Source of the DNA: an uncultured Actinomycetota bacterium
GTDB lineage: Bacteria > Actinomycetota > Acidimicrobiia > Acidimicrobiales > Bog-793
Reading direction: 5' to 3'
NCBI GenBank assembly: GCA_963747085.1
Contig: CAVVDX010000001.1
Span: 1,804,272-1,868,271 of the forward strand
Length of the DNA: 64,000 nt
Below, one piece after another: positions 1 to 64,000 of the stretch. Every line of letters starts with the position of its first letter. Positions within the stretch are counted from its first letter, which is position 1. The translations under genes were made by a program, and so were the position numbers. Under the pieces are notes generated by a model. The model searched no databases and was not told the origin of the DNA. It was given only the letters and a program-made list of their open reading frames with translations.

Positions 1-688
1 AGCGGCTGCCCGTACTGCACAGGCAAGGCGGTTGCCGCAGGCATGAACGACCTGGTCACGACGCATTCCGAGCTGGCAGCGCAGTGGCATCCGAGCCGGA
101 ATCGTGACCTCACCTCTCGACAGGTCAGCGCCGGCAGTCATCGTCACGCGTGGTGGCATTCCGAGTTGCGGCTTTGACTGGTGCGCGAAGGTCGTCGACA
201 GGACGGTCGATGCAACGGGATGTCCGCACTGCGCCGGTAAGCAGCCGCTTCGAGGCGTAGACGACCTCGCCACCACGCACTCCTGCCTGGCGAAGGAATG
301 GCTTAGGGAGCGCAATGAGCCTCTCTCGCCGCGCCAGGTCGCCGCTGAGAGCCACCTCCAGGTGTGGTGGCGGTGCCGAAGGTGTCGCCACGAATGGCGT
401 GCCGCGGTTCGTGACCGGGCTCGGCGTGGTACCGGATGCCCGGCGTGCGCCGGGCTCGTGCCGTCACCCGGTAGGTCCTTCGGCCATCTCGGGATCGTCA
501 AGGTCGGCGAATGGTCGAGCCGCAATGAGCTATCGCCGCAGAACTACACGCCGCGCTCGAGCCGACTCGTCTGGCGGCGCTGTAACTCGTGTGGCGTCGA
601 GTGGCAGCAGGAGGTCAGGTCGTGGGCCGACGGATACGGGCACCGCTGCGCCCGCATCCCGGTACCCAAGGTCGCAGGGAGGCGATGA
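1..688 (+). pseudogene. Zinc-ribbon repeat protein (tandem GCPxC...W...WxC..CxxxW units; DUF4379-like by recall), 5'-truncated by the window edge, with a frame break near 165-180
   Basis: Frame 1 from nt 1 reads SGCPYCTGK..DLVTTHSELAAQWHPSRN..HAWWH, then stops. ORF 104-688 in the next frame continues CGFDW..GCPHCAGK..LAKEWLRERN..VWWRCRRCRHEW..GCPACAG..VWRRCNSCGVEW. The same unit therefore repeats at least three times across a frame switch. Confidence 0.55.
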
Positions 689-965
689 CCCCCCGAGAGT
701 CGCCACCGTCCAGCTGAGCAGGTTCATGGCGTCCGCCCGAACGACAGGGAGCGTCTCGGATCGAGAGCGCGTTCGAAGCGCTCGTGAGGACGCAATGGCG
801 CTGCTTAGCGAGCTGATCGAGCTGCGGCCTCGGGCACGCACCGAACTGGAACGCTCGCGGAAGCACTGGTCGGCGCGAGGCCGTCGCCAGCTACCACGGC
901 AGCGGGGCGCCGTTCCACGAAAATACGGCAGATCCTGGACGAATTTGTCGGAATAGGGAATGATT

Positions 966-1902
966 TCACCGCTGGTGATTTCGTAGCTTGGATCCGCACC
1001 AGTCCAGTAGGAGCCGGCTCCGCCCCCCGGCGCCAGCTGCTGTGCCATCGCCGTTGTTACTCGCAGCTCCCCCGCCGCCGCCGAAGTAGCCACCACCACC
1101 ACCGCCGCCACCCGCACCGGACACACTCCCACCTGCACCACCATCGTGACCAGAACCATCTGCTCCGGACGCGGCTTGCGCGGTGGGGAGAGGTGGTGGA
1201 TTGTTGGGCCGGTTGTAGGTGTCGCCGCCAAGACCAGGACCGGAGGGGCCACCCACCGTCCCACCGTTGGACAGTGGGATCAGTCCGAAGGTGCCGCCTC
1301 CGTCAGAGGTAACGACGGCTCCCGTGGCGACAGCCTCTGCGCTTCCGCCGCCTCCGACGTAGCCGTTACCGCCTCCGAGGCCGCCCCCTCCGGGCGCGAC
1401 GGCGAGTGGGTTCCCGCCCGCCGTCAAAATCGCGGTGCCACCACCACCACCACCACCACCGTTAGGCGTTCCCGCTCCTCCGTTGCCGTATCCCAAGCCC
1501 CCGGCTCCACCAGCTGTCCCATCTTCGCCATCGGCGCCTACAACGACAGTGAGCGTGCCCGATACAAGGGCCGTAATCTCTCCGGATAACCATCCTGGCT
1601 GACCATATCCTGGCACCTCACCCGATTCATATGGCCCTCCCGACGCACCGCCGCCTTGACCGCCAGCAATGAGAAAAAAGTAGGCCGTGCCGGCTGTCAC
1701 CGGGAATTGATAGACGCCAGGGGTGCTCTCCGTCCACGTCATTGGACCAGCCGCGGCCGATGTTGCCGCGGCTTGGCACACAAAGCTCTCCGCGACCGGC
1801 ACCACCCAGAACCGAACCGCCAATGACTGCACTCGCCTTGATCAGCTTGCGTCGAGTCAACCCGCGCTCTGCTGCATGGTCCCCACGCGACTCGACGGAC
1901 AT
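966..1902 (-). pseudogene. Tat-signal glycine-rich secreted protein, frame-interrupted
   Basis: ATG at 1902 is preceded by GAGGAAAGG. The N-terminus MSVESRGDHAAERGLTRRKLIKASAVIGG carries a T-R-R-K-L-I-K twin-arginine motif. After a frame switch near ~1800 it joins ORF 966-1832 (GGQGGG..GGAGGLGYGNGGAGTPNGGGGGGGG..GGGGGGGGYFGGGGG). A further switch near ~1030 is possible, so the 3' end is uncertain. Confidence 0.5.
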
Positions 1903-2244
1903 TCGGGCCACCTTTCCTCGGACCGCCACGCTGAGGCGCCGGTTGCCATCCGAGTGAGGGAACTGTCCCCCCATCACTGCCGACCGATCGAGGAGCGCAG
2001 CGTCGTACCGCTCCGAAGAGGCTACTCGCCGAGCCGACGTCACAGTCAACCGACCCACAGACGGTTCCTCGAGCTGATCGACGGCGGAGCCGAATCCCGT
2101 GAACGAGCTGCACGCGGTGCGCTATCGACCTGGATGGCCCGGCCTGTTCGCCGGGGAGAACCAAACCAAGGCGCTGAGCAGAGTTATCGCGGACCTGAAC
2201 GCTTCGAGATCCCACCCACATCGCTCAGGATACGCCTCGGTCAC

Positions 2245-2415
2245 TCACGGCGGCGGTCCGTCGCCACGCAGCTCGGCGTGCAGCTCGCATGGCTGGGGGT
2301 CGTTCAACACCGTCCCGCTGCCGTCTGGGGCGACGTAGCTGAGCCTGAGCGAGCCGTCGTCAAGGTCGTAGGCGTCGTCGAGCAAGTAGCAGACGTTGAA
2401 CAGGACCTGGAACAT
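2245..2415 (-). CDS. Small hypothetical protein (56 aa)
   Basis: An internal ATG of ORF 2245-2505 gives MFQVLFNVCYLLDDAYDLDDGSLRLSYVAPDGSGTVLNDPQPCELHAELRG. The composition looks protein-like, unlike the Arg/Pro-rich upstream part of the ORF. No family recognised. Confidence 0.25.
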   Translation of the reverse strand: MFQVLFNVCYLLDDAYDLDDGSLRLSYVAPDGSGTVLNDPQPCELHAELRGDGPPP

Positions 2416-2584
2416 TTCCGCCGCGGATGACGGACTCGACCATCGCCTGGTCCTCGGGGGCGAGGGCGTTGAACCGGCGGGCGCCGCTCGACGTCGATGG
2501 CCCATGGTCTTCGACCCGGCGGGTCACGCAACACAATGACCGTTCCCTCAGCGGTGCTCTCGATGGTGTCGCGCGAGGAACTGG

Positions 2585-4177: not shown

Positions 4178-4774
4178 TCAAGGAGAGGCCGAGCCAACTG
4201 CAACTGGCCGTCCGAGGTGCCGGTACAGCGTCCTCCGGCTCACCCCGAGCGTCTTGGCGATGCTCTCGACCGACTGCTCCCTAGCGTCGTAGAGCTGCCG
4301 GGCCAGCTTGACCCGCTCGGGGGTCATCACCGCCGGGCGACCACCCTTACGACCGCACGCGCACGTGCCGCCGCCAACCCCGCCATGGTCCGCTCCCGTA
4401 TGAGCTGGCGCTCGAACTCCGCCAGGCTCACGAAGATGTGGAAGACGAGCTTTCCCGCTGGGGTGGTGGTGTCGATGGACTCGGTGAGGCTGCGGAACCC
4501 GACCCCACGAGCCTCCAAGTCGCCGACCAGCTCGATGAGGTTGCGTAGGGACCGTCCCAGCCCGGTCGAGCCGCCAGACAACCACCACGTCTCCCTCGCG
4601 GAGGTGGTCGAGCAACCTGTCGAGCTGAGGCCGACGGTCGAGGGCGCCACTGGCCTTGTCGGTGAAGATGCGGGTGCAGCCGGCAGCCTTGAGGGCGTCG
4701 AGCTGGAGCGCGGGGTCCCGGTAGAGGGTGCTCACTCGGGCGTACCCGATGAGGTCTCCGTTGGGCTTGGTCAT
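4178..4774 (-). pseudogene. Serine recombinase (resolvase/invertase family), two frame breaks
   Basis: The N-terminus [68 protein letters not shown] is in the frame of ORF 4178-4795. The middle, [67 protein letters not shown], is in ORF 4327-4650. The C-terminal HTH, ..[35 protein letters not shown], returns to the first frame. Confidence 0.85.
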
Positions 4775-4977
4775 GTTAAACTCAGTGTAGCACAAACGGT
4801 GAGGCAGCTCGTTATGGCACGGAGATAGCGCTCACGACTGCGGCGCAGCGAAACGGACCCTGTAGCCGCTCCCAGGCGGCATGAAGCAACCGTTCGTTGA
4901 TGACACTCCCTCCTGCGCAGCGTCGACACCGTCCTCGTCCACCCGGACGGACACCACTACTCCGACGATGGTGACTT

Positions 4978-7053
4978 CTACTGCGCAGACTGCTGGGAAG
5001 CTGGACCCTTACTGTCTCCCGAGTCCAAGGCTCCGGCCGGCGCAGCAGCCGCCGGTCGGTCACTGGCCGATGCCTCGAGGCGGTCGATGAGGTCAGCCAG
5101 GCGTGATACCTCCTTGTGCTTCTCGAGGTAGTCCCTGGTAACTGCGCTTTGCGTTGGCGATCAGCGTGTCGTAGGTGACAACGCGAGTGTTGATCCCGGC
5201 GAGCGTCGCAGTCACCTCCTCCGGCTTCAGGTCACTCGGGGGCTTCCCGAGTACGGCGATGCACTCGATCTCGTGTGGTTCGTCTGGGAAACTCTCCGCG
5301 AGACACTTTTGGAGTACCACACGGTACTTCCCGATCTGTCCGCGACCAAATCGGCCGTCGTGACGATAACGCTGTAGCGCTTCAGCTCGATGATGATGTT
5401 CTTGCCCGCAGCGGTCCGGTAGCGAATATCGAGCGCGGCCGGCCTTCTCCTCCGGGCTGAGCCCGGCGTCGATCTCGTCGAACTCCTTGCGCACGGACTC
5501 CTCTATGCGCTCGTTGGTGGAAGCCCGCTCCCACGAAGTGTCAAGTAGCCAGAGGTGGTCGAAGAGGTGCGTCTGGATCACCTTCTCCTTGGCGTCGGCA
5601 TCGACCAGGTCGGCGAAGGAGCTGATGACGCTGACCCGACCTTTGGCGATCTGTCCGTACTCGGCGGCTTCGATGTCGTCGATGGTCGCGAATGCCTTGC
5701 CGATCACGTCGAACTGGAGGGCCGTCTCGTCGAGCTTGTCGACCTCGCTGAGCAGGTCCCGTAACCGAAGCCGCTCGAAGGCGAGGATGCCGTGCTTGTA
5801 CAGCTCGAGCCGATCCGCCTCTCGTTCGAGGGCGATGCTTCCCAGTGTTCCCGAAGAGGCGTTTGGCGTAGGTCTTCTGGTCCGCCCCGAGTGAGGAGTA
5901 CCACTCCTCGACCACGGCATTCTTGCGGGCCTTGTCGAGGGAGTGGTTGCGCGACGCCAGTCCCGCCACTTGTTGCCCACCTCGAGGAGCACGGTCTTGG
6001 CGAGGTACTGGGTCAGTGCCTCGAAGCGAGGATCGTCCTCCTTGAGGCTCTGGCGATCGCTCGTCGCGATGTCCGGATCGTCGTCGGAGTCCACGAAGTC
6101 GGCGTGGATCTCACCCATGAGGTACTTGGCGAACACTCCCGCCTGCTTCACCAGTGCGAGCAGGTCCTCGTGGATGAGCTTTCCCGCGTGCCAGGATGGG
6201 GCACGACGTTCGTCTCGTCGTCGATGTTCCGCTGCTCGTCGACGGTGCCGACCCATCCTGTCACGGCCCATCCTAGTCGCCGAGACCGAGCCGGTGATCG
6301 TCTCCTTCTTCTTGGCATTGACACAACGACCGGCGTAGATGTCTCCGACGTCACCGAGGGACCAGAGGTACTCGATGTTGGAGAAGTAGTCTCGATCGCT
6401 GACGCTGATCTCGGACCCGTCGATTGACACGACGAAGCCGTGTTCGGGACCGATCACGCTGAACCGGCGAGCGAGCCGACGGCGGAGCGCGGACCGCGTT
6501 CCTTCCGTGGGACGCAGCCGGAGGTCGGTGAGAGTGATCCTCGTGCCCCGCTCCAGGTTAACGTATGAAGCATCCATCGGTGTCGGGTGGTAACTCCCCT
6601 CGCCTTCGCCCATCTGAGCGCGGATGTCCGACGTCCGGAGGATCGGAATTCGGCCCGCTGACCCCCCTTGACGCTCTCCACCTGCACCGTGTCAGCGATA
6701 GCGAACAGGGACAGCTTGCCGATCCGCTTTCGACCCATGACGGCCCGGCGCCGTGCGGTGACAGAGGCCCCTGCTTTGCGCCGCTCGAACCCAACGTAGA
6801 GGAAGCGATCGTTGAGATCCTTCGGCGTCATTCCGATGCCGTCGTCGGCCACCGAGATCGTCCTGGAGTCCACGTCGATCACGATCTCGACCTCCTCGGC
6901 GTCGGCATCCCACGCATTGGCGACTACCTCGGACAGGACAGCCGGGATGTTGCTGTAGAGGTTGAGCCCGAGATGGTCGACACGCTTAGGCTGAGCCTCA
7001 TCGTGTACGGGTGCGAGTCCTCGGCGGTCGGCACGTCGTCTGGCATCAGCCAA
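4978..7053 (-). pseudogene. GHKL/MORC-like ATPase (HATPase_c_3-type) with a C-terminal ExK (PD-(D/E)xK-like) motif; about 8 frame breaks
   Basis: The Bergerat-fold N-terminus reads LGLNLYSNIPAVLSEVVANAWDADAEEVEIVIDVDSRTISVADDGIGMTPKDL..GRKRIGKLSLFAIADTVQVES. Later segments recovered from alternate frames are GWAVTGWVGTVDEQRNIDDETNVV, NHSLDKARKNAVVEEWYSSLGADQKTYAKRLFG, HLFDHLWLLDTSWER and LDIRYRTAAGKNIIIELKRYSVIVTTADLVAQIGKYR. The tail ..RSYQDYLEKHKEVSRLADLIDRLEASA.. ends at TAG 4978-4980. The TTG 7053 start is tentative. Confidence 0.7.
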
Positions 7054-7127
7054 GGATGCCTCATCCCCGGTGACCCCGACGCCTCGGATGGGGTCAGGCA
7101 GCCGATTCGTCCGGCGATCCCGAGCGG

Positions 7128-8086
7128 CTATCCTGCTCGGCGGAACTCCTCGTAGCGCTCCTCGAACCGCTCCGGGTCCGGTCGGGCCGTGCGAGGCTCG
7201 GGGCCGGATCAGCTGGACCCCGGCCATCTCCTGCAGTCCGTGGAGCGGCATCGGTCCGTCGATCTGGGCGTGGACGTCGGAGCGCACCTCCACCACCAGG
7301 TCGGCCGCACGCCAAGTGGATTCTCGTCGTAAGCAGCGTGGTGCATCTTGCACAGCGACAGCCCGTTGGGAACGATCGGTGCGCCCCTCGGGTGCCCGTC
7401 GGGGAGGATGTGGGCGGCGTCGAGCAGCGACGAGTACCGCAGTCGGCACATGGCGCACTGGTTCGCGTAGGCGGTCAACACTCCGATACGGAAGACCGGC
7501 TGGTGCAGCCGCTGGCGGGTCAGCCGTTCGATGTAAGGCGCTGCGTCTCGTCACCGACATCGCCGACGGACACCAGGCGCTGCGCCACGTCGAAGGCGAC
7601 CACGAACTGGAGCTGAGCGGGCTCGTCGCCCACGATCCAGATCGGGTAGACGGGCACGTACGGCCCGCCGCGGCGGCCACGAACCACACCAGCGGCAGAC
7701 CGTGGTCGAACGCCTGCCGAGCGACGTTCTCGGGGTGGGAACGATCGATGCCTCGGTACTTGTAGCGGAGCAGCCCGTCCGGTCCCTCGGCATCCTCGTA
7801 GGGTGGGGCCTGGCCCGGGGGGGAAGCGGGTCCGGATGGACAGAGCCACCGTCATGTGGGCCGGCTTGCGGATGCCGCGCTGCGGGTCCATTAGTGGCAT
7901 CCGCCGGCCCTCGAAGCTGAACTCGGCCAGCTCGTCGAAGGATAGGACCTCGCGGCCGGTGGCGACCCGCTCGTCGAGCCATGCCATGGCGGCCACCCGC
8001 AGGCGATCCTCGTAGTCCCTGTCGATGACGGAATCGTACGACGCAGTGGGGCTCCAACCCCGGGAGCTTGGACCCACCAAGGCCAA
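7128..8086 (-). pseudogene. HNH endonuclease (HNH_2-type) with an N-terminal domain of unknown function; about 5 frame breaks
   Basis: HNH core: LTAYANQCAMCRLRYSSLLDAAHILPDGHPRGAPIVPNGLSLCKMHHAAYDEN (ORF 7209-7481). The N-terminal region, reassembled across frames, reads ..LSFDELAEFSFEGRRMPLMDPQRGIRKP..PPGQAPPYEDAEGPDGLLRYKYRGIDRSHPENVARQAFDHGLPLVWF..YVPVYPIWIVGDEPAQLQFVVA. The tail ..RPDLVVEVRSDVHAQIDGPM..LHGLQEMAGVQLIRPEPRTARPDPERFEERYEEFRRAG ends at TAG 7128-7130. The breaks coincide with G/C runs, for example G7 at 7817-7823. Confidence 0.7.
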
Positions 8087-8112
8087 ACTCGCGGAGATGG
8101 GTGCCGGGACAC

Positions 8113-9284
8113 ATGCCGTCCTCGTACGATCGGGTCGTGGAGGGATGCCCGGTCTGTGCTGCGGATGCCGATTTCATCAACATGGCGCGCCGGCCGGATT
8201 ATGAATCCCTCACCCCGAGGTTACGGGCGGCCGACCTCTTGCGGCGGGGGAGGCCTCAGTCTCGGCTTCGCCGAGGCCGCGAGGCGGATCGGTCGCGGGA
8301 TCAAGATCGCGGCCGCCGTGGACAGGTTCGACGCCGCCGACGCCGAACCTAACTTTCCCGGCGCCACGGTGACCCGTCAGGACGTCGCCGCTATCTTCGA
8401 TGGTGCGGCCGGCGGCCGTCCACCGTCAGCGAGACGGAACGGTCGGCCGAGATCGGTAAGGTCGATATCCTGCTCGCGGGTCCACCCTGTCAGGGCCATT
8501 CGGACCTCAACAACCACACCAGCAGAGACGACCACCGTAACGGGCTCTACGTGCGAGTTGCCCGGGCGGCCGAAATCCTCAGCCCTCTGGCTGCCGATCG
8601 AGAACGTCCCCGCTGTGCACCACGATATCGCGGGTCGGTGCCGGCCGCGAGCCCGGCCCTCGAAGGCCGGTTATCGCGTGGCGACGGCGGTCCTCGACCT
8701 CACCGAACTCGGCGTTCCGCAGCGCCGTCGCCGCCACCTGTTGCTCGCCCTCCGCGACCAGCGGATCGACCCGACGCCATACTCGGGACCACCATCGCCT
8801 GTTGCGACCACAAGTCCCGAGGCGTGGCATGGGCGATCCGCGACCTCCTGGGGGCGTTTCGCCGACCGGCCCGAACGCGCCGAGCACTGCAAACGCCGAG
8901 AACAGAAGCGGATGCACTGGCTGTCGCCAACGCAAGTATGACCTGCCGAACAAGCGACGACCGACTGTCCACCACGACGACCACAGCTACGCGTCAATGT
9001 ACGGCCGACTGGATTGGAGGCTTGCACAGACGATCACTACCGGCTACGGTTCCCCGGGCCAGGGCCGTTATGTCCATCCCGCAGAGGCCAGGACGATAAC
9101 TCCCCACGAGGCAGCCCGGCTCCAGACGCTGCCGGACTTCTTCGACCTCGGGCTAAGAAGACACGGGGCACCTGGGCTCACGTCATCGGCAACGCGGTGC
9201 CACCCCTGCTAGGGGTCCACGTCGGCATGCCACCGCCGTCCGCCCTCTTCCCGCCCAAAAAGGACCGCATCCCCCCCCCGATGA
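8113..9284 (+). pseudogene. dcm: DNA (cytosine-5) methyltransferase (candidate DISARM DrmMII equivalent); at least 6 frame breaks
   Basis: Motif I: ..AADL/CGGGGLSLGF. Motif IV: VDILLAGPPCQGHSDLNNH. ENV motif: PIENVPAV. Also GYRVATAVLDLTELGVPQRRRRHLLLA. C-terminal motifs: TITTGYGSPGQGRYVHP..RTITPHEAARLQTLPDFF and IGNAVPPLLG. These are spread over all three forward frames (ORFs 8068, 8156, 8551, 8802, 9014). The proposed stop TGA 9282-9284 follows a C9 run. Confidence 0.8.
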
Positions 9285-9724
9285 CGGACTCCTCCCCCGC
9301 ATTGCCGGGTCCCGCAGGGTCGAGCGAGGTGATTCTGCAACGGATGAGGACGACCAGGCGACGGGACACAAAACCCGAGTTGCTGCTGCGCTCGGAATTG
9401 GACCGCCGAGGCATGCGGTACGCGGTCGATCAGCCCGTGGATGGCACCCGGGGGCGAGCCCACATCGTCTTCAAAGGTGCCCGGGTCGCGGTCTATGTCG
9501 ACGGCTGTTATTGGCATGGCTGCCGTCCACGGCACGATGCCCAAGAGCAACGGCCAGTGGTGGAAGGAAAGCTCGACACCAACCGCTCACGGGACGCCGA
9601 CACCGATGCGAGGCTCACCGAGGCCGGTTGGACCGTGTTGCGGTTCTGGGAACACGATGATCCGGTCGAGTCGGCCGCCAAGGTGGTCGCCGTAGTCCGA
9701 GGGGAGATCGCCGGGCGTCGCTGA
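9281..9724 (+). pseudogene. vsr: Very-short-patch (T:G mismatch) repair endonuclease Vsr; two frame breaks
   Basis: MTDSS..RMRTTRRRDTKPELLLRSELDRRGMRYAVD..RAHIVFKGARVAVYVDGCYWHGC is followed in an alternate frame by ..HGTMPKSNGQWWKE. It then returns to KLDTNRSRDADTDARLTEAGWTVLRFWEH. ATG 9281 overlaps the proposed dcm stop (ATGA), like the dcm-vsr overlap in E. coli. Confidence 0.8.
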
Positions 9725-9766: not shown

Positions 9767-12164
9767 ATGCCAGCCCAACTCCGTGTGACGGCACAGCCGT
9801 CCGCGAGAATCACCAGCGTGAGCGCAACGACGAGCGAACCGAGGGCAGCCTGGGATGCCGTGCTGCTTGAGCACGAGGGCGGGGCAAGCCTCGTCACCAT
9901 CGCTCGCGACCGCAGGCTCGTGCTGGAGGACGCCCATGGGCCGCACTGGGTGGACCTCTCTTGGGTCGACGAGGCCGCCCTCGCTCTGGTCGATCTGGCT
10001 GTCCGGCGTGGCCAGAGCGTCGACCTGGTGTATCCCGCCCCTGCGGGCACGGTCGCCGTGCTCCTCGCGGCTCAGCTCCTGCTCGGTCGGTTCCTGGCCA
10101 CCCGCGGTGCGAGGGGGCTCCCTCGCCGTCTCTCGGACTGGTCACCGCTGACCCCACCATGGCCGAGCGGGTCTGGAAGCAGCTCCGGATCGCGACGCTG
10201 GGCGACCGTGCCCCGATCGACGAGGTCTTCGCGTGCTTCCGCGCTGGACCTGACGGCGAGAGCCCCGTCGGCGGCCGGCGCTTCACCGGCATCATCATCG
10301 GCCAGGCGTGCGCCGGCTGGCCGGTCGACTGCCTTGTCGTCGACCACCTCGCGGGACTGGTGAGTGTTCCGAGCGGACAGGCGTCGGTCGAGGTCTTCGC
10401 CGACCCTCTCGACCCAGCGCTCCGTCGGGCCGAGCACGATGGCCGACTGCTCTGGGGATGGGCCGACTCCGACCTCGCCCGATGGAACGATGCCCTTGAG
10501 ATCCACCCGACCACACGGTGCCGTTCTCGGTCGCCACCGAGCGCCTGAGCGCCATCGCCCACGGGGTCGATGTCACCATCTCCGTCGCTCACCACGCCGA
10601 CGCCGAGGCTGCATTGGCCCGGGTCCGCGAGGACCTGCGGCTGCTGCGAGTCCTGACCCCCGAGCGCTCCAACCGCCACGTCGAGCGCGGCCTGTCGGCC
10701 GCCTGGCACCATTCTCGACCTTGACCTCGCTCGCCTGTGAACCGGGCCGTTTCGACCGGTTCGCGGGGCTGCCGCCGTGGGCTGCTCGTGCGACCCGCAC
10801 CTTCGAGCCAGAGCTGACCGCCTGGGCACGCACTCTCGACGGCGACCAGGCGGAGATCGCCACCCTCCTGGCCAGCGACATCGGCGACCTCCGCGCTGCC
10901 CTCGACACCGTCAACCCACTGGGATCGGCGGTCGCCGAGCTGGCCGGGGGCGACACCGCGGCGCTCGTCGTGACCAAGACCAAGACCGCCTCTCGGGCGC
11001 TTCTCGATGCCCTCGGAGCTGACCCCGACGCGAGCGCCGTCGGCCCGCTCAGCGTGTGTGCCATCGGCCGTCTGCACCGACACGGGACGTGGCCTCGGGC
11101 GGTCGTCGTCGGAGAACCGGCGCCGTGGGACTGGCATCGGATTTGTCCGGCCTCTCGATCGAGGTGACCGTTCTGGCGCTCGGCGAGGCCTCGGGTCGGA
11201 CCTGCGCCGCCAGCGTCGACAGCGTCCGCGCCGCCCGGGAACGGTGGGGCAGCCCCGAGATCCGAGGCAGGACCTGGCGGACGCTGCTCGGCACCGATCC
11301 ACCGCCAGCCCCGGCGCCCGTCGCCGCCAGGCCGCCGGCGCTCGTCCTCGACGGCGCCGAATTGGTGCCGAACCCGACCCCTTCGAGCCCTTCGACTCCC
11401 TGTTCGACCTCGATCCGCTCGACATCGGCGACGAGGGACCCACGTCCCAGCTCGCCCGCCAGCTCGACGACGGCGACTGGGCGGCCGCCGTCGCCGCCGT
11501 CGTCGTGACCACCGACAGGGGTCGGGTGCTGCTCGAGGAGGCAAGATCGGTCGAGGTGCGAGTCGGTCCCAAGATCGAAGACCGGCGGCCGCTCAAGCTC
11601 CTGCATGGCGATGTCCTCCTCATCGGCCGCCGGCAGGGCCGGGTCGGCCTGCTCGAAGCCCTGGAGGAACGACTGGGAGATCGGCCCGACCTGCTCGCCG
11701 CACGGATGCTCCTCGACCGCTACCACCAGTTGGTCCGCGCCCGATTCGCCCAGTCGGGATTCAGCATCGCCGATCTCCACCGCAAGCTGGAGGCGCTCGG
11801 GTGCGACAAGACGGCGTTCGCCGTCCGCAGCTGGGTGACCGAGGGCGGGATCATGGCGCCTCGTGATCTCAGCGACCTGCGGCTGCTGTGCGTGGCGCTC
11901 GACCTCGGTATGTCCGACGTCCAGATCGGTGAACTGTTCGCCTGCGTCCAGCGCCGTCGGGTGTTCCGCCGGGCCGCCGGCCGGGCGCTCGCCGAGGCTG
12001 CTCGAAGCTCGACCCTCGTCGGGGACCAGCGTCGCGTCGATCCCGACACCGGCCTATCCATCGCCGACCTCCGCGACGCTGTCATCGAGGCAGTTGTCCT
12101 CGAAGTCCGGCCTTGCGAGGAACGGGTGCCGCTGACCCTGCTGGGACGACTGGAGAGCACGTGA
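9767..12164 (+). pseudogene. drmE: DrmE-like protein of about 800 aa (assigned by size and position only); five frame breaks
   Basis: Protein-like text can be followed through ORFs 9767, 9961, 10518, 10364, 11056 and 11007, with switches near 10112-10125, 10505-10515, 10700-10712, 11138-11142 and 11365-11375. It ends ..VPLTLLGRLEST at TGA 12162-12164, overlapping the drmA GTG (GTGA). I could read no catalytic motif. Confidence 0.45.
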
Positions 12165-15100
12165 CCGATCAGCTCAGTTCTGCCCACTGCACCACCTTCG
12201 TCTCGTGGATGCTCGACGGTGTCGTCGCCGAGGCGCGGGGTGACCGCATGCAGTTCCTGCCCGTCGCCCCCAAGGGTCGCTTCTGGCTGGGCCGGCTCGC
12301 CCCGGAGATCGTGGTCCAGAACAGCCGACTGGGGGAGCGAAGCGAACGGTTGGAGCCGTGCGAGGTCGGTATACGGGTTCGCCCCTCGGCCATCGATGGC
12401 CGCTCGGTCTCGTGCTCGGCTCAGTTCGTCGTCTGGAGCGAGTTCGACGGCGGCGATCAGCCGGACGCCGACAAGTGGCGCAAGAGCGAGCCCATCGAGG
12501 TGACCGCGACATTGCCGATCCCGAACGCCATCGCCCAGGTAACGTCCGCCGGCCGCGATGCCTTCGAGCGGGCGCTCGCCGGCAACGGGGCTGTTGGCAT
12601 GAGCTGTGAGTTCCACGCCGAACTTGAGTTCGGCAAGGACGGCCCCGAACTCGTCGTCACGCTGGTCAACATCTCGCCCGAGGAACTCGACGGCTGGGAC
12701 ACCAACCTCTACGAGGCGTCGATGACCGCCGATGTCGGCGCGACCGAGCCCTTCACCCTGGACAACCTCCCCGATTCGTTCCGGTACGAGCGGACGGTCC
12801 CGGCCTACGGCGTCAACGGCGGCGTCGAGCTGGTCTCGTCCACCGTCTTCCAGACCACCGACGTCGCCGTCCGCGATCAACCGCGGCCGGACTATTGGGA
12901 CCACGAGGCCGGCACGGCGCCGGACATCACCTTCGCGGCCCTGGCAGACGACCCGATGCCGAGCCTGCGGAACCTCGTCACCCTGGCAGCGCAGTGGGGT
13001 GACCACCACTGGTCCGATCAGGTGCTCGCCGGCCGGGCCGACCACGAGCACTGGGACGAGGGCATGCGCCAGCTTGCCGCAGAGGAGGCAGCCGCCTTCT
13101 TCGACGAGCTGGCCCGGCTCCAGCAGGGGGTCACGCTGCTCGACGGCGACGAGGGGCTGCGACGCGCCTTCCGGTTCGCCAACCGGGCCTTCGCAACGTC
13201 ACCCGCCGTGCCCCATGGGGGCTGGCGAGCGTTCCAACTCGGCTTCGTGCTCGCCAATGTCGCCTCCATCGCCGACGATTCGCCGCACGGCCCCCGCGAG
13301 GTCGTCGACACGCTCTGGTTCGCCACGGGCGGCGGCAAGACCGAGACCTACCTCCTCTACGTGGTGACGGCTGCGTTCTTCGACCGTCTCCGTGGCAAGC
13401 GCGAGGGGATCACGTCCTGGGGCCGCTTCCCGCTGCGGATGCTGTCGCTTCAGCAGACGCAACGCTTCGCCGACGTGCTCGCTGCCGCCGAACTCGTGCG
13501 CCGCGACGAACAGATCGACGGCCAGCCCTTCTCGCTCGGCTTCTTCGTGGGCAACAACGGGACTCCCAACAAGATCCCCACTGCCCGCGATCACCGGCCG
13601 GGTCAGCCCGACCCCAACGACGCCGAGATGCCTGGCCGCTACCAGGTCCTGCTCCGCTGCCCCTTCTGTACCTCTTCGTCGCTCGAGATGCGCTTCGATC
13701 AGCAGCGCTGGGCCCTCGACCACGTCTGCACCGCCGCAGACTGCCCGTGGGGAGGCCGGCCGTTGCTCATCCGCGTCGTCGACGAGGAGATCTACCGCTC
13801 GCTGCCGACGGTCGTCCTCGGCACGCTCGACAAGGCGGCGAGCATCTCGATGCAGGCGGCGATGCGCGGCTTCTATGGGCCACCGGCCGGACGCTGCCCC
13901 CAGCAGGGGCACGGCTACACCTACGCGCCGAGGAGCAAGTCCCCGTCCGGATGCCTCTTCCCGGGCTGCTCGGCGCAACCCGGCCCGCTTCGTCAGGACG
14001 CCGCGATGTTCGCCCCCACCATCCGGATGCAGGACGAGCTGCACCTCCTCCGCGACAGCCTGGGGGCGGTCGATGCCCACTACGAGGCCCTGCTCGACGC
14101 GCTCCAGACCCATTACGGCTCGACCCCGAAGATCATCGCCTCTTCGGCCACCCTCGCCGGTCACGACGAGCAGGTGGCTGCGCTCTACCGCCGCGAGGGA
14201 CGAACCTTTCCCCGTCCTGGCCCGCGGGTCGGTCACTCGTTCTGGTCCCGCGACACGGAGAAGCTCGCCCGGCGGTTCGCGGGCGTCGCACCGCGTGGCG
14301 TGACGCTGGAGTACGCCACCGACCAGCTCACCGAGGCGCTCCAACGCGTGACGCGGCGAGCGATCGACGAGCCTGCTGCCGTCGCCGCCGAGACCGGCCT
14401 GGCGACCGACCTCTTCCCCGCTCTCGTGTCGATCTACGGCGTCGATGTGGTCTACGGCTCGACGCTCAAGGACGTCGAGGCGGTGGCACGTTCCTTCGAC
14501 ACCCAGATCCAGCTCTCCCGCCCGGTCAACGCCGCGACGCTCACCGGCCGGACGCCGCTCGACGAGGTCCGCGCCACGCTGGCCCGTCTCACGCACCCCG
14601 AGGCCGACTTCTACGACCGGATCCATCTCGTGGCGGCGTCGTCGATGCTCTCCCACGGCGTCGACATCAATCGGCTCAACGTCATGGTCATGCTCGGGCT
14701 GCCGCTCGCCACCGCCGAGTTCATCCAGACGACCTCACGAGTCGGACGCACCCACCCCGGTCTCGTTATCGTCCTCCACAAGATCGGCCGCGAGCGCGAC
14801 GCCGCCGTCTACCGCACCTTCCCGTCATTCGTTGCCCATGCAGATCGCCTGATCGATCCCGTGCCGGTGACGGCCAAGAGCCGTCGGGTGCTGGAGCTGA
14901 CCTTCGCTGGACTCGTCCAGGCCCGCCTCTTCGGGATCCATGAACCTGCGGCGATCGCCGCCAACCTCAGACAGCTCACTCTCCCGGCCGCGGTGCGACG
15001 GGCCTTCGCCCGCCTCCCCGTGCTGGAGCCGGCGGAACTGGCGGCACTGGTCGCGATGCTCGCCTTCACGGGGCCACTCGACGAGAACCTGAGACAGGAT

Positions 15101-15256
15101 CTCCAGACCTACCTGCGCGAGTTTTTCCGTGCCCTCAACGACCCGGCCAGCAGCGCCCATTGGGTCGACGATCTCTTCCCTACGGGCAAGCCGATGCTGT
15201 CCCTGCGGGACGTCGAGGAACAGGCTCCGGTCTACTCAAGGGGCGGTCGGTCGTGA
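12161..15256 (+). CDS. drmA: DrmA-like SF2 helicase (DISARM core), intact
   Basis: Uninterrupted ORF (12113-15256; likely GTG start at 12161). Walker A: LWFATGGGKTETY (13322-13345). Motif II: IRMQDELHLL (DELH at 14033-14044). Also IIASSATLAGH, and motifs V-VI VAASSMLSHGVDINRLNVMVMLGLP..AEFIQTTSRVGR. A CPFC...C..DCPWG zinc-knuckle insert is present. Confidence 0.8.
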   Translation: MTDQLSSAHCTTFVSWMLDGVVAEARGDRMQFLPVAPKGRFWLGRLAPEIVVQNSRLGERSERLEPCEVGIRVRPSAIDGRSVSCSAQFVVWSEFDGGDQPDADKWRKSEPIEVTATLPIPNAIAQVTSAGRDAFERALAGNGAVGMSCEFHAELEFGKDGPELVVTLVNISPEELDGWDTNLYEASMTADVGATEPFTLDNLPDSFRYERTVPAYGVNGGVELVSSTVFQTTDVAVRDQPRPDYWDHEAGTAPDITFAALADDPMPSLRNLVTLAAQWGDHHWSDQVLAGRADHEHWDEGMRQLAAEEAAAFFDELARLQQGVTLLDGDEGLRRAFRFANRAFATSPAVPHGGWRAFQLGFVLANVASIADDSPHGPREVVDTLWFATGGGKTETYLLYVVTAAFFDRLRGKREGITSWGRFPLRMLSLQQTQRFADVLAAAELVRRDEQIDGQPFSLGFFVGNNGTPNKIPTARDHRPGQPDPNDAEMPGRYQVLLRCPFCTSSSLEMRFDQQRWALDHVCTAADCPWGGRPLLIRVVDEEIYRSLPTVVLGTLDKAASISMQAAMRGFYGPPAGRCPQQGHGYTYAPRSKSPSGCLFPGCSAQPGPLRQDAAMFAPTIRMQDELHLLRDSLGAVDAHYEALLDALQTHYGSTPKIIASSATLAGHDEQVAALYRREGRTFPRPGPRVGHSFWSRDTEKLARRFAGVAPRGVTLEYATDQLTEALQRVTRRAIDEPAAVAAETGLATDLFPALVSIYGVDVVYGSTLKDVEAVARSFDTQIQLSRPVNAATLTGRTPLDEVRATLARLTHPEADFYDRIHLVAASSMLSHGVDINRLNVMVMLGLPLATAEFIQTTSRVGRTHPGLVIVLHKIGRERDAAVYRTFPSFVAHADRLIDPVPVTAKSRRVLELTFAGLVQARLFGIHEPAAIAANLRQLTLPAAVRRAFARLPVLEPAELAALVAMLAFTGPLDENLRQDLQTYLREFFRALNDPASSAHWVDDLFPTGKPMLSLRDVEEQAPVYSRGGRS

Positions 15257-16947
15257 GGGTCGAGCGGGGAGCGTCGCAGATCCTCTTCGGGCTCCTCCCT
15301 GGCCAAACTGCGGATCTCGAGGGCCGCATCTGGCGCGTCACCAACTGGGTCGACCCGGTCCAGACTGCACTCGACCAGGACACGGTTCGGTCGGCCCTCA
15401 TCGCCGCCATCGCCCCGTGGGCCGCCACTGGCAACGACGACGGTCTGACCGCCGAGCTGCGGGCCAGAGCCGCGGTCGACATCGTGAGACTCAACATGGA
15501 TCGCGGCGTGCTCGTCGAGCCTTTCCCGCAGCAGTGGCGCTGCAAGACCTGCGGCACGATCACTGCGTTCGCGTGACGACCGCTGTCCCTGCGGTGGACG
15601 AACTCGGGCGCAGATGCAGTTCGTCTCTTACCACACGTGCGGGGCGGCACGAGAGCCGATCCTCCAACCCTGCCGGACCCACAACGCCGTCGCTGTGCAC
15701 CTGCCCGGCACGTCCACCGCCCGCGAACTCCGCTTTTTCTGTCCTCAGTGTCGAGCAACGATCTCCCAGGGCTTCCCGTACCAGGTGTGCAACTGCGGCG
15801 GCGGGATGAGCGTCACCGTCCACCGTGCCGCCGTCGTCTTTTCGCCCCGGTTCGCAGTCCTCGTCAACCCGCCCGACCCGGCCACCGCCGCCCGGCTCAG
15901 AGCCGGCGGTGGTGGCGCTCGCGCGCTGGAGTGGGTGGTCGACGGCATGACCACCGACGACCCCACCGCCGGCCGACAGACCCTGGCCGGCCTCGTGGAG
16001 GGCTTTCGCCAGATGGGGTTGTCGGAGGCGACCGCGCACGATCTCGCCCGCCAGGCGGCGGCGCAGGGCGAGGTCGATGCCGGAGCTGCCAATCCGATCG
16101 CGCTCCAGGACCCTGTTCGGGAGAAGGCGCAGGAGGAGGCACTGAGCCTCGCCTCCGCTGTCTCGGGCGGCCGAACCCGGGTGGCCGACATGGTGGCCGG
16201 CACGACGCCGCCGCTGCGCACCCTCTACGAGGGCGCGTATCACGACGCCACGCGCGCCGCCCATCTCGAGGGCGTCGATCTGCTGGCCAACTTCCCCGTC
16301 GCAACCCTCGGCTTCGGCTACACCCGCGGCGACATGAACCCCGGCGTCGCCCGTCTGGTGCCGTTTCGCGATCGGGGTCACATCCGAGCCTATGCATCCC
16401 TCAGTCGGACGGAGGCGCTGCTGTTCCGGCTCGATCCCCTCGCGGTCCTCCATCACCTGACGGTGACCGGACACCCGCTGCCGCCGGCTGTGGATGCACG
16501 AGCGGCACGGCTCGCGATCCTCGAGAATCTCGACATCCCCTGGCCGACCCAGGAGCAGTACCAGCCGCTCGGCGGGAGCGTGCTGTTGCTGCTCCACTCC
16601 TATGCGCACCGAACCATCCGCCGGCTCGCGGCCTTCGCCGGCATCGACGCGACGGGTTGGCCGAATACCTGCTGCCCCACCATCTCGGATTCGTGGTGTA
16701 CGCCGCCTCGCGCGGTGACTTCGTCCTCGGCGGGCTACAGGCGGTCTTCGAGACCTCGCTGCATCGCTTCCTCGAGGACTTCGTCGCGGGCGAGTCACGC
16801 TGTGCCCTCGATCCCGGCTGTCGCAGCGGCGGCGGTGCATGCATGGCCTGCCTGCACCTGGGCGAACCCTCCTGTCGCTGGTTCAATCGCTTCCTCGACC
16901 GTTCCCAGCTCTTCGGTGAGCACGGCTTCGTGCTGGACGCTCGCTGA
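15253..16947 (+). pseudogene. drmB: DrmB-like DUF1998 protein (DISARM core); two frame breaks
   Basis: GTG 15253 overlaps the drmA stop (GTGA). Reads ..FPQQWRCKTCGTITAF, then after a break at ~15570 RDDRCPCGG..FVSYHTCG..FFCPQCRA..CNCGG. After a break at ~16648 it reads GLAEYLLPHHLGFVVYAASRGDFVLGGL..SRCALDPGCRSGGGACMACLHLGEPSCRWFNRFLDR, the DUF1998-type Cys cluster. Confidence 0.75.
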
Positions 16948-16949
16948 CG

Positions 16950-23797: not shown

Positions 23798-23874
23798 GCC
23801 GCCATTGTAGTCCGGAAGTAGTCCGACAACTGAGGCGACGTGCGAGCAGCGAGACGAAGCAGCGCTCACACCTG

Positions 23875-50698: not shown

Positions 50699-51955
50699 TC
50701 AGCTGATCGTATTGAGCAACGACACCGTGACCGTCAGCGCGCTGGGCGCCAGCGGCAGGAAGTTGAACTGGGCCAGGTACTTGTTCGACGCCCCGTCGTT
50801 GGGGTCCGCACCCCAGGCGAGGAGCGCCTTGATGTCGTCCGCCGTCGAGGAGCTCGTCTGGTTCTGCAGCACGATCGCGTACTCGAAGTTGGCAATCGGG
50901 TACCCGTACTTGGCGGAGTGCGAGTAGATGAGCGACACCGTTCCCGGCCGGATGTTGTCCGAGTTGCCGATGCCGGGGATGTGCTGGTAGCTCGCCACCT
51001 CGTTGCCGATCGTCGTCCGGTTCAGGTTCATGTAGTTGCCCGAGGCGTTCTCGAGCGCGGCGTCACCGAGCCCGTGCGACAGCGCCGAGCGCAAGTAGCT
51101 CACGCCGATGTAGGCGATGCAGCCCTTGATGCTGATGCACGCTTGCAGCATCCCGGAGTTACCGGTCTCGGCCTGCTCGCCCGACACGGTCGGGAAGTTC
51201 GTCGAGGAGGTGTTCGGGCCGCCCATGTTGGCCTGCACGAACCCACCGTTGGTCGCCCCGTAGTCGATGTACGAGGTGAACAGGAAGGTGTCGCCGCTGC
51301 CGTCGGCGCGTTCGCAACGGCACGATGGTCAGGTTGGGCAGCTTGATTCCCTTGTTGATCGACGTGATTTCCGAGTTGTCCCAGTTGGTGACCTTGCCGG
51401 AGTAGATGTCGTTCAGCACGTTGGCGTTCAGCTTGACGTGGGTCGAGGACGATAGGCCCGGGATGTCGTAGTCGATCTGCTGGGCCGAGACGACGATCGG
51501 GATGTTCAGCACGTTGGACGGGATGCTCTGCGGCAGGTAGGCGTCCGAGGCGCCGATGTTGATCGTCCCGGCTTCAGCCTGCGCCTGCCCCGTGCCCGAA
51601 CCGGTCCCGGCCGGGCTGATGCTGAGACCGAGCGGCTTGACTCCGGACCATGCGACGAACAGCGGGTAGAACAGTGTCGAGCCGGTCTCCGAGACAGTGT
51701 CGCCGGAGTGGGCCAGCTTCTGGAACTTGGCGAGCTGGGACTCGAGGGTGCTCAGGCTGCTGGTGGACGACGAGCCGCCTTTGCTCTTGCTCTTCTGCGC
51801 CTTGACGTGGGTCGACGCGCTGGCGAGCGGCGCAAGCACCGCTGCGGTCGCCAACGAGCCGGCGACGACGGCGGCCCCAGCGATGGCGAGGCGACGACGG
51901 GCTCGGCTGGGCCGCGCTGCGCCGCGGTCCCTCCGTGAATCGGGCTCATCTGCAT
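50699..51955 (-). CDS. pstS: Phosphate ABC transporter substrate-binding protein PstS; two frame breaks (~51900, ~51300)
   Basis: GAAAGGAG precedes ATG 51955 (MQMSPIHGG..). The signal ..RRRLAIAGAAVVAGSLATAAVLAPLASA is in a shifted frame. Reads ..GSTLFYPLFVAWS..SPAGTGSGTGQAQAEAGTINIGASDAYL.. (ORF 51159-51854), then ..RADGSGDTFLFTSYI..CIAYIGVSYL..YPIANFEYAIV.. (ORF 50699-51238). Confidence 0.8.
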
Positions 51956-62628: not shown

Positions 62629-63032
62629 CCGCGCCGTGCTGCCGGCTCGTCGCGCCCGCCGCGTCCCAGACCGACTCTCTCGCCTGGACTGCACCGCCGC
62701 CCGGCCGGGCGCGCGCCTCGCTCGCCCCGGGCGAGGTCGTGGCGCCCGAGCGTGTGCCCGGGTCAGAGCCGGGAACCGGCGAGCACGTCGTCCCCGACCG
62801 CCCGTGGCTCGTCATCGTCTGGAACGACCCGATCAACCTGATGAGCTACGTGACCTACGTCTTCCAGAAGCTGTTCGGCTATTCGAAGGAGAAGGCGACC
62901 AAGCTGATGCTCGACGTGCACCACAAGGGCCGCGCGGTGGTCGCGTCCGGACCGCGCGAGCGCGCCGAGCTCGACGTCGCCCGCCTGCACCGCCACGGTT
63001 TGTGGGCGACGATGGAGCAGACAGACTCGTGA
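62625..63032 (+). CDS. clpS: ATP-dependent Clp protease adaptor ClpS (start uncertain: GTG 62625 or 62739)
   Basis: ..[74 protein letters not shown]. Confidence 0.85.
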
Positions 63033-63619
63033 CCCGCCGCCGGATCCGTGCCCTGCGCGATGGCGACTTCGAGGTCCGGCTGCCCGCAGCAGAGCGCGCG
63101 CTGCTCGCATCACTGCCGCGCCAGCTGGCGACAGCGCTCGACGAGCTCCCCGAGGAGGGCGAGATGCCCGAGGCGATGCGGCGCCTCTTCCCGCCCGCGT
63201 ACCTGCAGGACGAGAGCGCCGAGGCGAGCTACGACTCGCTGATGCGTCCCGAGCTCGCCGCCCACCACCGCGAGGCGCTCGAGACGCTGCTCGACACGGC
63301 GGACAAGAGCCGCCTCACGCCCGAGGAGATCGAGCGCTGGCTGGCCGCGCTGAACGATCTCCGGCTCGTCATCGGCAGCTCGCTCGGCGTGACCGAGGAC
63401 ACACCTGCGGTGCGGCCGGGCAGTCCGCGATTCAGCGAGTGGGCCCTCTACGGCTACCTCTCCTTCCTCGAGGGTGAGGTCGTCGACGCGCTGTTCGGGA
63501 CGCTGCCGCCGCCCGTCCCTCACGCCGGCGACGACCTCCCGGAGGATCCGTGGGGCGAGCCACTCGGCGATCTTCGCTGGGACGGCACCGAACGGCCGAA
63601 CGGCCCGACGGGCATCTGA
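63029..63619 (+). CDS. Conserved hypothetical protein downstream of clpS (DUF2017-like by recall)
   Basis: GTG 63029 overlaps the clpS stop (GTGA). Reads ..[73 protein letters not shown]. Confidence 0.55.
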
Positions 63620-63732
63620 CCCCGGCGGCAGGCGCTCGTCCACCGTGCCAGCGCCGCGGTTTGTCGTCCCCGCCGCGGCGTCGACTCGCGGGCGGACGCG
63701 ACCTTCCAGGTAGCCTGGTGCACCGCCGACGG

Positions 63733-63805
63733 GCCCCCATCGTCCAGCGGCCGAGGACGCCGCCCTTTCAAGGCGGAAACACGGGTTCGAATCCCGTTGG
63801 GGGTG
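63733..63805 (+). tRNA. tRNA-Glu (anticodon UUC)
   Basis: GCCCCCATCGTCCAGCGGCCGAGGACGCCGCCCTTTCAAGGCGGAAACACGGGTTCGAATCCCGTTGGGGGTG. The anticodon loop is CTTTCAA and the T-arm is ACGGG/TTCGAAT/CCCGT. Confidence 0.9.
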
Positions 63806-64000
63806 CGCCCAAGGTTCCTGCTCAGGAAGCTCTGACGGCTCCCCTCGCTGACGCCTCAACCGCTTCGATGTCCGCGCAATGTCCGCGGGACCTTGCTGTG
63901 CGACATGCTCTGCGTCGCTGATCGGGACGACCCGCCCCATCGCGAGAGTCCCAAGAGCTTCCGCAATCGCTCGGTCGCGGTCCTCCGTGGCGTGCTGGTA
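63806..64000 (-). CDS. int: C-terminal fragment of a second tyrosine integrase (5' part lies beyond the window; 3' end undefined)
   Basis: The minus strand from nt 64000 reads YQHATEDRDRAIAEALGTLAMGRVVPISDAEHVAQ.. The Y-x-H-A-x-x-x-R-D-R-x-I-A pattern is the typical tail after the catalytic Tyr of actinobacterial integrases. The frame runs into the tRNA-Glu sequence without a stop. Confidence 0.5.

Follow-up and report, generated by a model that had tools for sequence, protein, structure and literature searches.

Frame breaks along a contig of an uncultured Acidimicrobiia: probable consensus indel errors over an intact-looking DISARM cassette

The stretch of DNA analysed here (the window, 64 kb) is part of a single 2,770,597-bp contig of an uncultured Acidimicrobiia, and holds 40 kb of core genes and a 24-kb island at a tRNA-Ser gene. 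Genes are interrupted by frame breaks in both parts. The question raised by this locus is whether the breaks are faults of the assembled sequence throughout, or whether those of the island are mutations in genes that are becoming pseudogenes.

Number and location of the frame breaks

Breaks were mapped by homology-guided, frameshift-aware alignment and were counted only when supported by homology (Table 1). A frame model based on GC3 alone worked for the core, but in the lower-GC island it took much of the sequence for non-coding; a codon-usage model was used instead. The latter produces some spurious frame switches, e.g., inside positions 5096-6691 of the type II restriction-enzyme-like gene, a section that otherwise has a single frame. 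Several candidate events were discarded: a phoU break that came from one distant reference (both PhoU repeats lie in one frame) and, as unreliable, C-terminal events in Lnt and GtrA, N-terminal events in ctaC, and two events past the methylase's own stop codon.

Table 1. Features of the island and positions of core gene breaks in the window
Feature	Position	Strand	Breaks and basis
Serine-recombinase (resolvase) gene	4181..4831	-	2 breaks, ~4557-4567 (extra G in CCGGGCT) and ~4350-4359; Pfam Resolvase 2-76, Resolvase 75-143 and HTH_7 in frames -1, -0, -1
Type II restriction-enzyme-like gene with HATPase_c_3	5096..7100	-	1 break near C6 run 6662-6667
HNH endonuclease gene	7131..8177	-	6 breaks, one at G7 run 7817-7823; frameshift-aware alignment to L088 protein
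C5 cytosine methyltransferase-Vsr fusion (DrmMII-like)	8137..9724	+	12 breaks, all deletions
drmE	9824..12161	+	5 single-base deletions: ~10109, 10507, 10713, 11141, 11371
drmA	12161..15253	+	0 breaks; intact, 1031 codons, 90% amino-acid identity to L088
drmB	15160..16941	+	2 breaks: insertion ~15565, deletion ~16647
drmC (PLD nuclease)	16800..17685	+	1 break: insertion ~17244
ATP-dependent DNA ligase fragment	19908..20820	-	At least 1 probable break, ~20250; weak evidence
Tyrosine integrase	22641..23812	-	1 frameshift, ~22984; in-frame TAG 22923-22925
tRNA-Ser(tga)	23874..23959	-	Island integration site, adjoins integrase
pheA break 2	24804..24813	-	Between PDT and ACT; PDT 102-178 and ACT in different frames
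pheA break 1	25032..25039	-	Inside PDT domain; PDT HMM positions 1-111 and 102-178 in two frames
qcrC break	35859..35865	-	1-nt deletion ~35864 adjoining G4 run 35859-35862; frameshift-aware alignment to L081 QcrC and DNA alignment
ctaE break	36434..36436	-	1-nt deletion; reference GCCGCGGTC, window GCC-CGGTC; tblastn, DNA and frameshift-aware alignment
hemH break 1	38391..38392	+	1-nt deletion; frameshift-aware alignment
hemH break 2	38801..38812 (~38806-38812)	+	Within GCGCGCGC stretch
ctaD break	45893..45899	-	1-nt insertion ~45896, context CTCGACC, no homopolymer; frameshift-aware alignment to three ctaD homologues
pstS break	51308..51317	-	PDB 1pc3 residues 23-160 are matched in one frame, residues 160-349 in another
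pstS second break (putative)	51890..51950	-	N-terminal; GAAAGGAG and ATG out of frame with signal peptide RRRLAIAGAAVVAG

The alignments confirm frame breaks in core genes and in the island alike, as an earlier reading of the sequence only had reported. Its tally of about 10 core and about 40 island breaks comes down to 8-9 in the core (pheA 2, qcrC 1, ctaE 1, hemH 2, ctaD 1, pstS 1 and one putative) and at least 31 in the island, 26 of these in the DISARM cassette. All 37 mapped breaks are 1-2-nt events, and the sole in-frame stop is the TAG of the integrase gene. With 31 breaks in 23.9 kb vs 7 firmly located ones in 40.1 kb, the island is about 6-7 times denser than the core (p ~5e-8), and the several-fold difference noticed before is upheld.

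Core breaks occur about once per 4-5 kb, are often paired a few hundred bases apart, and are clustered (p = 0.007-0.03). In the cassette 88% of the breaks are deletions (23 deletions, 3 insertions) vs about 3 deletions and 4 insertions in the core (Fisher p = 0.02); since the spectra differ, a single uniform error process does not fit. Eighteen of the 26 cassette breaks are packed into 2.4 kb, i.e., 23% of the cassette length (p = 8e-7), and the HNH and C5-methylase genes reach the extreme density of about one break per 135 nt. This patch stands against an unbroken 3.1-kb drmA, whose lack of breaks has p = 0.02 even when only the less affected part of the cassette is the reference.

All breaks previously attributed to ctaD (one), hemH (two), pheA (two), qcrC (one) and ctaE (one) were located by alignment or by domain frames. 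The pheA gene is split over three frames (Pfam PDT 1-111, PDT 102-178 and ACT). The context of its first break, GAATTTCC, fits one extra T, as the expected protein is ..QCREFLGAHLPGA; that of the second, GACGGGGCAC, fits one extra G in the G4 run or a 2-nt loss, from the three-frame reading of the junction. The flanks of the ctaE break show 100% and 96% identity to the related sequence L081 by tblastn, in different frames. In hemH, the sequence upstream of break 2 is in frame +1, which is open until 40021, and the conserved C-terminus (RVLAT...GP*) with its ATGA overlap with hemY is in frame +0. The shifted frame of ctaD stays open for 555 aa. Of the two breaks that had been assigned to pstS, one was located and is probably one extra base in TTGCGAACGC, the expected protein being ..VPLRRADGSGDTF; the second is putative, and is suggested by the different frames of the ribosome binding site with its ATG and of the signal peptide, in a region that lacks a close homologue.

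Sequence context of the breaks and the quality of the consensus

It had been proposed that the breaks cluster at G/C runs. This was largely not borne out: 4 of the 37 breaks have a run of at least 4 no more than 3 nt away, vs 8.6% expected (not significant), and only for runs of at least 5 within 6 nt is there a modest enrichment (5 of 37 vs 3.5% expected, p = 0.009). In the core coding sequence, 10 of about 11 runs of at least 6 are without a frame switch. Neither the concentration at runs nor the dependence on run length that marks homopolymer-specific error of the 454, Ion Torrent or nanopore R9 type was found. All five homopolymers that had been named as break sites exist where they were placed, and four are within a few bases of a mapped break, with the exception of C9 at 9271-9279, where the frame is kept, the sequence encoding IPPPM of a variable linker, and no evidence of a break was seen. 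At AAA 9568-9570 a G has been lost (GGAGAAG to GGA-AAG), which creates the run; this is not a run-length error. No significant enrichment of GATC (p = 0.19), CCWGG or other 4-mers was detected near the breaks.

With a probability of about 0.8, the frame breaks are 1-2-nt consensus indel errors of a long-read assembly and not mutations. The indels are short, the broken genes carry no sign of evolutionary inactivation, and homologous loci in accurate assemblies lack these indels. The L081 homologues of the core genes, which belong to another strain, are intact, and the broken core genes show the same degree of conservation as the intact genes next to them (dN/dS 0.14-0.45 vs 0.09-0.37) and are highly conserved on both sides of the breaks, in agreement with the earlier view that the core breaks are technical. 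The source is a single megabase-scale contig and so looks like a long-read assembly. In nanopore metagenome-assembled genomes, residual consensus indels cause frameshifts, and the effect is worse below ~40x coverage (PMC9262707). A search of 5.8 billion proteins found no same-species relative, and among species-representative genomes the best ctaD match is 81% identical, so that there is no same-species genome for comparison.

The error process would be patchy and deletion-biased and would not be driven by homopolymers; errors would be few in the core, more closely spaced in the tRNA-Ser island, and would reach an extreme in the HNH and C5-methylase genes. The local cause is likely a poor consensus, either from low effective read depth or from several strain variants mixed together in a defence island that differs between strains, and a poor consensus would leave deletions uncorrected after polishing. 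We infer both the long-read platform and the role of coverage or heterogeneity in the patches. Lower coverage or strain heterogeneity over the island had already been put forward, rightly, as a live alternative to decay. Long-read coverage is not expected to vary on a 1-2-kb scale; given the sharp contrast between the patch and drmA, an extra cause is needed, e.g., strain mixture.

A technical variant of this kind, which is possible but tentative, is a collapse of strains in the consensus: diverged HNH and methylase alleles may coexist, and a hybrid consensus would drop bases where they are misaligned, so that the patch would mark real heterogeneity of the population. Deletions dominate and the boundary of the patch is sharp. 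The patch is also the most divergent part of the cassette, with a dS to L088 (a homologous cassette from another strain) of 0.73-0.83 vs 0.35-0.56 elsewhere, and amino-acid identity between L088 and a further homologue, L085, is likewise lowest here. However, once its frames are corrected, the sequence gives a single coherent and conserved protein with no sign of allele mosaicism, and the core breaks and the other island breaks need another cause. A stronger form, in which the indel patch at 7.1-9.6 kb would have been left by diverged or inactivated alleles of the DISARM modification module that coexist in the sampled community, is distinctly unlikely. If true, the artefact would be a sign that a defence module is actively turning over in a single natural population of Acidimicrobiia.

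The DISARM cassette and tests for decay of the island

The cassette has the gene content of a DISARM class 2 system: a single operon encodes a DrmA helicase, DrmB (DUF1998-type), DrmC, DrmE and a C5 methylase. PADLOC identifies DrmA on the window protein (E = 3.6e-102), and on the L088 homologues DrmB (5e-26), DrmC (2e-15), DrmE (8e-6) and DrmMII (2.5e-32); Pfam matches are DNA_methylase, PLDc_2 and DrmE_C. The HNH endonuclease was assigned through its intact homologue, which has HNH matches in both PADLOC and Pfam. After frame correction the methylase-Vsr fusion keeps the PCQ, ENV, QRR and GNAVPP motifs and the Vsr domain, and the predicted class 2 cassette as a whole looks intact.

Outside of the cassette, the restriction-enzyme-like gene and the integrase gene have only 36-42% relatives among viral contigs. 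In the ligase fragment, Pfam DNA_ligase_A_M 29-144 matches one frame only, and the codon model weakly suggests a frame switch near 20250. The substitution-type stop previously reported in the integrase is present: the codon of an invariant Ser has changed from TCG to TAG. Such a stop is less typical of an indel-dominated consensus error. No direct repeat of the tRNA-Ser 3′ end (att) was detected within positions 1-24,100, and the far end of the island is probably outside the window.

Cassette homologues on four short-read metagenome contigs (L084, L085, L087 and L088), which are related but come from other strains, were used for comparison. None has frameshifts in drmE, drmA or drmB, and between L084 and L088 the difference over 8.85 kb is 4.4%, without a single gap. 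In a relative-rate test of the window vs L088, with L085 as outgroup and with frame-corrected genes, window-unique and L088-unique amino-acid changes in the four broken genes number 39/36, 37/27, 17/12 and 8/9, or 101 vs 84 in total, and there is no excess on the window branch; intact DrmA shows 31/42. Even if only 3-5 substitutions went with each indel, true decay should have left 129-159 window-unique changes (p = 0.006 to 5e-7). The frame-corrected dN/dS of the window vs L088 is 0.12-0.23, the same as in the intact pairs L085-L088 and L084-L088. The relaxed selection of a decaying island, i.e., a dN/dS approaching 1 and a nonsynonymous excess, was looked for here and is not seen. The underlying coding sequences keep the same purifying-selection signature as their intact homologues. 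No internal nonsense codon was found in about 3,500 cassette codons, and no large deletion, truncation or IS insertion relative to L088 in the 10.6-kb cassette. Of the nonsense codons and truncations that mark pseudogenes, the cassette has none and the integrase has the one TAG.

These results speak against the earlier claim of genuine island decay atop background error, by which DISARM, restriction-modification, resolvase, ligase and integrase genes would be turning into pseudogenes over a low technical background everywhere; this is now unlikely. Defence islands and the integrases of fixed islands often decay, and the break density of the island relative to the core, the more deletion-biased spectrum, as the deletional bias of bacterial genomes predicts, and the heaping of lesions in HNH, methylase and drmE, with drmA untouched, would agree with it, as would the integrase with both a stop and a frameshift. 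However, decay would need at least 20 independent indels nearly without substitutions (p < 1e-6 if each indel came with 5 of these), no broken cassette gene has an excess of amino-acid changes, and the methylase motifs are intact despite 12 frameshifts. Spontaneous indels of bacteria, as known from mutation-accumulation studies, arise preferentially at runs and repeats; most indels in the window are outside of these, which also counts against true mutation. The integrase TAG is the only lesion that could be genuine, and one substitution cannot settle the question of decay.

That all breaks are real, in a degenerating genome that has lost cytochrome oxidase, the bc1 complex, ferrochelatase, prephenate dehydratase and PstS, is hardly tenable: the deposited sequence does contain the breaks, and several genes have two lesions, as dead genes do, but broken genes are as conserved as intact neighbours, alignments to homologues show no nonsense codons or large deletions in the broken core genes, and joint loss of ctaD, ctaE, qcrC, hemH and pheA in 30 kb without drift is not credible for a 2.77-Mb genome of free-living type.

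Significance and comparison with known systems

The value of these results is mainly practical. Annotation of the contig would miscall dozens of genes as pseudogenes or as proteins in the wrong frame. In a genome of ~70% GC a frameshift often leaves the reading frame open, as in ctaD; shifted frames stay long, and quality checks based on length therefore under-report the damage. Assembly indels can be told from decay without reads, by correcting frames against homologues and then testing for substitution excess, dN/dS and motif loss. Treated in this way, what appeared to be a decaying defence island reads as an intact-looking, predicted DISARM class 2 cassette.

The cassette resembles DISARM class 2 in order and content (C5 methylase, DrmE, DrmA, DrmB, DrmC). 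It differs in that the methylase carries a fused Vsr mismatch endonuclease and a divergently transcribed HNH endonuclease gene lies ahead of it, and the DrmE match is weak (E = 7.6e-6) and confined to the C-terminal domain. In common with pseudogene decay in genomic islands, there are several lesions per gene, an excess of deletions, an inactivated integrase and a tRNA-adjacent island; however, relaxed selection, substitution excess, nonsense codons in the cassette, truncations and IS insertions are lacking.

The closest likeness is to the residual consensus indels that fragment genes in nanopore and PacBio CLR assemblies and metagenome-assembled genomes (PMC9262707; PMC12007338; PMC8103633), which are also 1-2-nt indels. 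As there, the breaks hit otherwise conserved genes, among them respiratory, haem and phosphate-uptake genes that ought to be essential; most are deletions, and some parts of the contig are more densely broken than others. The sequence likewise comes from one megabase-scale contig of an uncultured lineage. The textbook form of long-read consensus indels is tied to homopolymers. In the window, by contrast, fewer than 15% of the breaks are at runs of at least 4, and G6-G7 runs in the core are called correctly. The pattern looks more like a locally under-polished or low-depth consensus than like systematic homopolymer miscalling.

Distribution of the frame breaks

Breaks in reading frame were mapped with a purpose-written frameshift-aware protein-to-DNA dynamic-programming aligner, with intact homologues as guides; where a gene had no close homologue, breaks were placed from fragments lying in different frames, by their Pfam profile coordinates or the PDB residues that they match. 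Short-read assemblies supplied the homologous loci. From L081, a JGI/ENA scaffold of 18.75 kb, the analysis took a 15.2-kb locus that is syntenic with window 28.6-43.7 kb. The defence cassette at window 7132-17739 is also present in L084-L088, which are JGI metagenome contigs, and their nucleotide identity to the window is 83-84% for L088 and L084, and 74% for L085 and L086.

The island (1 to about 23.8 kb) has at least 31 breaks in 23.9 kb, and the core (24-64 kb) has 8-9 in 40 kb. If the core is represented by its 7 firmly located breaks (40.1 kb), the comparison with the island total gives p of ~5e-8. The counts of the sequence-only reading and its contrast between island and core are thus correct, and all the core breaks it named are present, with the second pstS break, at the N-terminal end, inferred. 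A second break in hemH is required, since its conserved C-terminus and its overlap with hemY (ATGA) lie in another frame. No break was found in phoU, qcrA, qcrB, hemE, hemY or the other core genes tested.

Features of the window, with frame breaks, and of the comparison contigs
Feature	Position (strand)	Breaks	Details
First ORF region	104-685		codes for DUF4379 repeats (treble-clef zinc finger)
Resolvase		2	
Type II restriction-enzyme-like/HATPase gene	5096-7100 (-)	1	break near C6 run; large gene with HATPase_c_3 (GHKL ATPase) domain and a region resembling type II restriction enzymes (PADLOC REase_II, E = 6e-35)
DISARM class-2 cassette	7131-17685	26 unique	divergent HNH endonuclease 6, C5 methylase fused to Vsr 12, drmE 5, drmA 0, drmB 2, drmC 1
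Same cassette elsewhere	L088 4966-15625; L084; L085/L086		
Ligase		at least 1	weak evidence
Lowest-GC region	20680-22655		GC 0.60-0.62; rated non-coding by core-trained codon model; weak NikA-like and phosphoribosyltransferase ORF matches only
Integrase	TAG at 22923-22925 (-)	1 frameshift and in-frame TAG	
tRNA-Ser(tga)	23874-23959		adjoins tyrosine integrase; divides island from conserved core
pheA		2	PDT 1-111, PDT 102-178 and ACT in three frames
pheA junction	24804-24813		G4 run
pheA junction	25032-25039		extra T in GAATTTCC
qcrC	~35864	1	1-nt deletion beside G4 run
ctaE	~36434	1	1-nt deletion; flanks 100% and 96% identical to L081
hemH	~38391 and ~38806-38812	2	
ctaD	~45896	1	1-nt insertion
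pstS	51308-51317	1 firm	two frames, one matching 1pc3 residues 23-160 and the other 160-349
Conjugation/type IV secretion-like gene cluster	54389-58690 (-)		within the so-called core; includes VirB4/TraG-like P-loop ATPase and TrbL-like membrane protein; highest GC of window (0.75-0.77)

The genome is actinobacterial, and GC in the window is 62-78%. In species-representative genomes the best matches to ctaD are uncultured Acidimicrobiia/Acidimicrobiaceae metagenome-assembled genomes with at most 81% aa identity, and the nearest database protein to the qcrB product, apart from an identical one, is at 83%; among these matches no same-species relative was found for comparison. A search of the window for an att repeat found none. 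Within 1-24100 the tRNA-Ser 3′ end has no direct repeat, and therefore the island's far boundary is probably outside the window, beyond its start.

Past its frameshift, ctaD has a wrong frame that remains open for 555 aa (44427-46094, minus strand). In this GC-rich genome frameshifts often leave open reading frames untruncated, so that they would escape gene callers and quality checks based on length ratios. The longest G run of the core, G8 at 50674-50681, lies between pstS and pstC, some 20 nt past the stop codon of pstS, and an error in its length would show in no reading frame.

Homopolymer runs and the local error pattern

The breaks had been read as clustering at G/C runs. The five runs named exist and four of them are at or beside a mapped break, but the clustering is not borne out overall: runs of at least 4 are found within 3 nt of only 4 of the 37 breaks mapped in the window (8.6% expected). 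The figures are 18 of 37 for runs of at least 3 (32% expected, p = 0.02), and 5 of 37 for runs of at least 5 within 6 nt (3.5% expected, p = 0.009). The association of breaks with runs is weak overall. The C9 at 9271-9279, in the methylase-Vsr linker, is read in frame as IPPPM. Among core coding runs of at least 6, 10 of about 11 show no frame switch, including the G7 in lnt. Most events, such as CCATCTGC to CCAT-TC, CGCATCTTG to CGGAT-TTG and GGAGAAG to GGA-AAG, are in unremarkable sequence, and no 4-mer, GATC included, is enriched near breaks.

The events are patchy. Eighteen of the 26 in the cassette fall in 7131-9567, which is 23% of its length (p = 8e-7), and the 3.1-kb drmA is free of them (p = 0.02 relative to the cooler rest of the cassette). 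Breaks in the core are closely paired (p = 0.007; 0.03 if the inferred pstS event is left out). The island has 23 deletions and 3 insertions, the core about 3 and 4 respectively (Fisher p = 0.02). A long-read consensus that was locally under-corrected would leave such breaks, and it fits because of this patchiness, the paired core breaks, the deletion bias of the island and the origin of the sequence in a single 2.77-Mb contig. Residual frameshifting indels are documented in nanopore metagenome-assembled genomes, and are worse below ~40x depth (PMC9262707). Since divergence within the cassette is also highest in the hot patch, a mixture of strains over a variable restriction-modification module is a plausible local cause.

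Technical error or decay

The sequence-only reading had considered the breaks partly technical and partly genuine decay of the island. The first part stands: because the broken core genes are conserved as much as their intact neighbours and have no other lesions, the core breaks are technical. Island decay is not borne out as far as it is testable, with substitutions, dN/dS and motifs all normal.

Four independent short-read contigs have drmE, drmA and drmB homologues free of frameshifts, and the 4.4% difference between L084 and L088 includes no gap over 8.85 kb. In a relative-rate test with L085 as outgroup, aa changes unique to the window and to L088 number 39 and 36 in the methylase, 37 and 27 in drmE, 17 and 12 in drmB, 8 and 9 in drmC, and 31 and 42 in the intact drmA, with no significant difference in any of these five cassette genes. 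Genuine decay should give a clear excess: even at 3-5 substitutions per indel, a ratio from bacterial mutation spectra, it predicts 129-159 window-unique changes for the 20 indels of the four broken genes; 101 are observed, a shortfall with p = 0.006 to 5e-7. Frame-corrected dN/dS between the window and L088 is 0.12-0.23, indistinguishable from that of the intact pairs L085-L088 and L084-L088. After frame correction the methylase-Vsr gene keeps its PCQ, ENV, QRR and GNAVPP motifs and the Vsr domain, and internal nonsense codons are absent from the cassette. At least 20 independent frameshifts without accompanying drift form the pattern that consensus error would give, unlike that of decay. The breaks in the window are very probably artefacts of assembly and have little biological interest.

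The integrase TAG is the only substitution-type stop found, and it may be genuine or an error. It replaces a Ser kept in 11 of 11 aligned homologues (FxF-S-RSPAG), and therefore the change is TCG to TAG.

The DISARM cassette and its relatives

A by-product of the break analysis is that the island cassette is of DISARM class 2 and apparently functional rather than decaying. The restriction-enzyme-like/HATPase gene just upstream of it may be a second defence gene. In the JGI metagenome contigs the 10.6-kb cassette aligns at 83-84% nucleotide identity, and the alignment ends at the cassette ends, 7132 and 17739. Because the alignment stops there and the flanks appear to differ between the window and these contigs, the cassette seems to move as a module.
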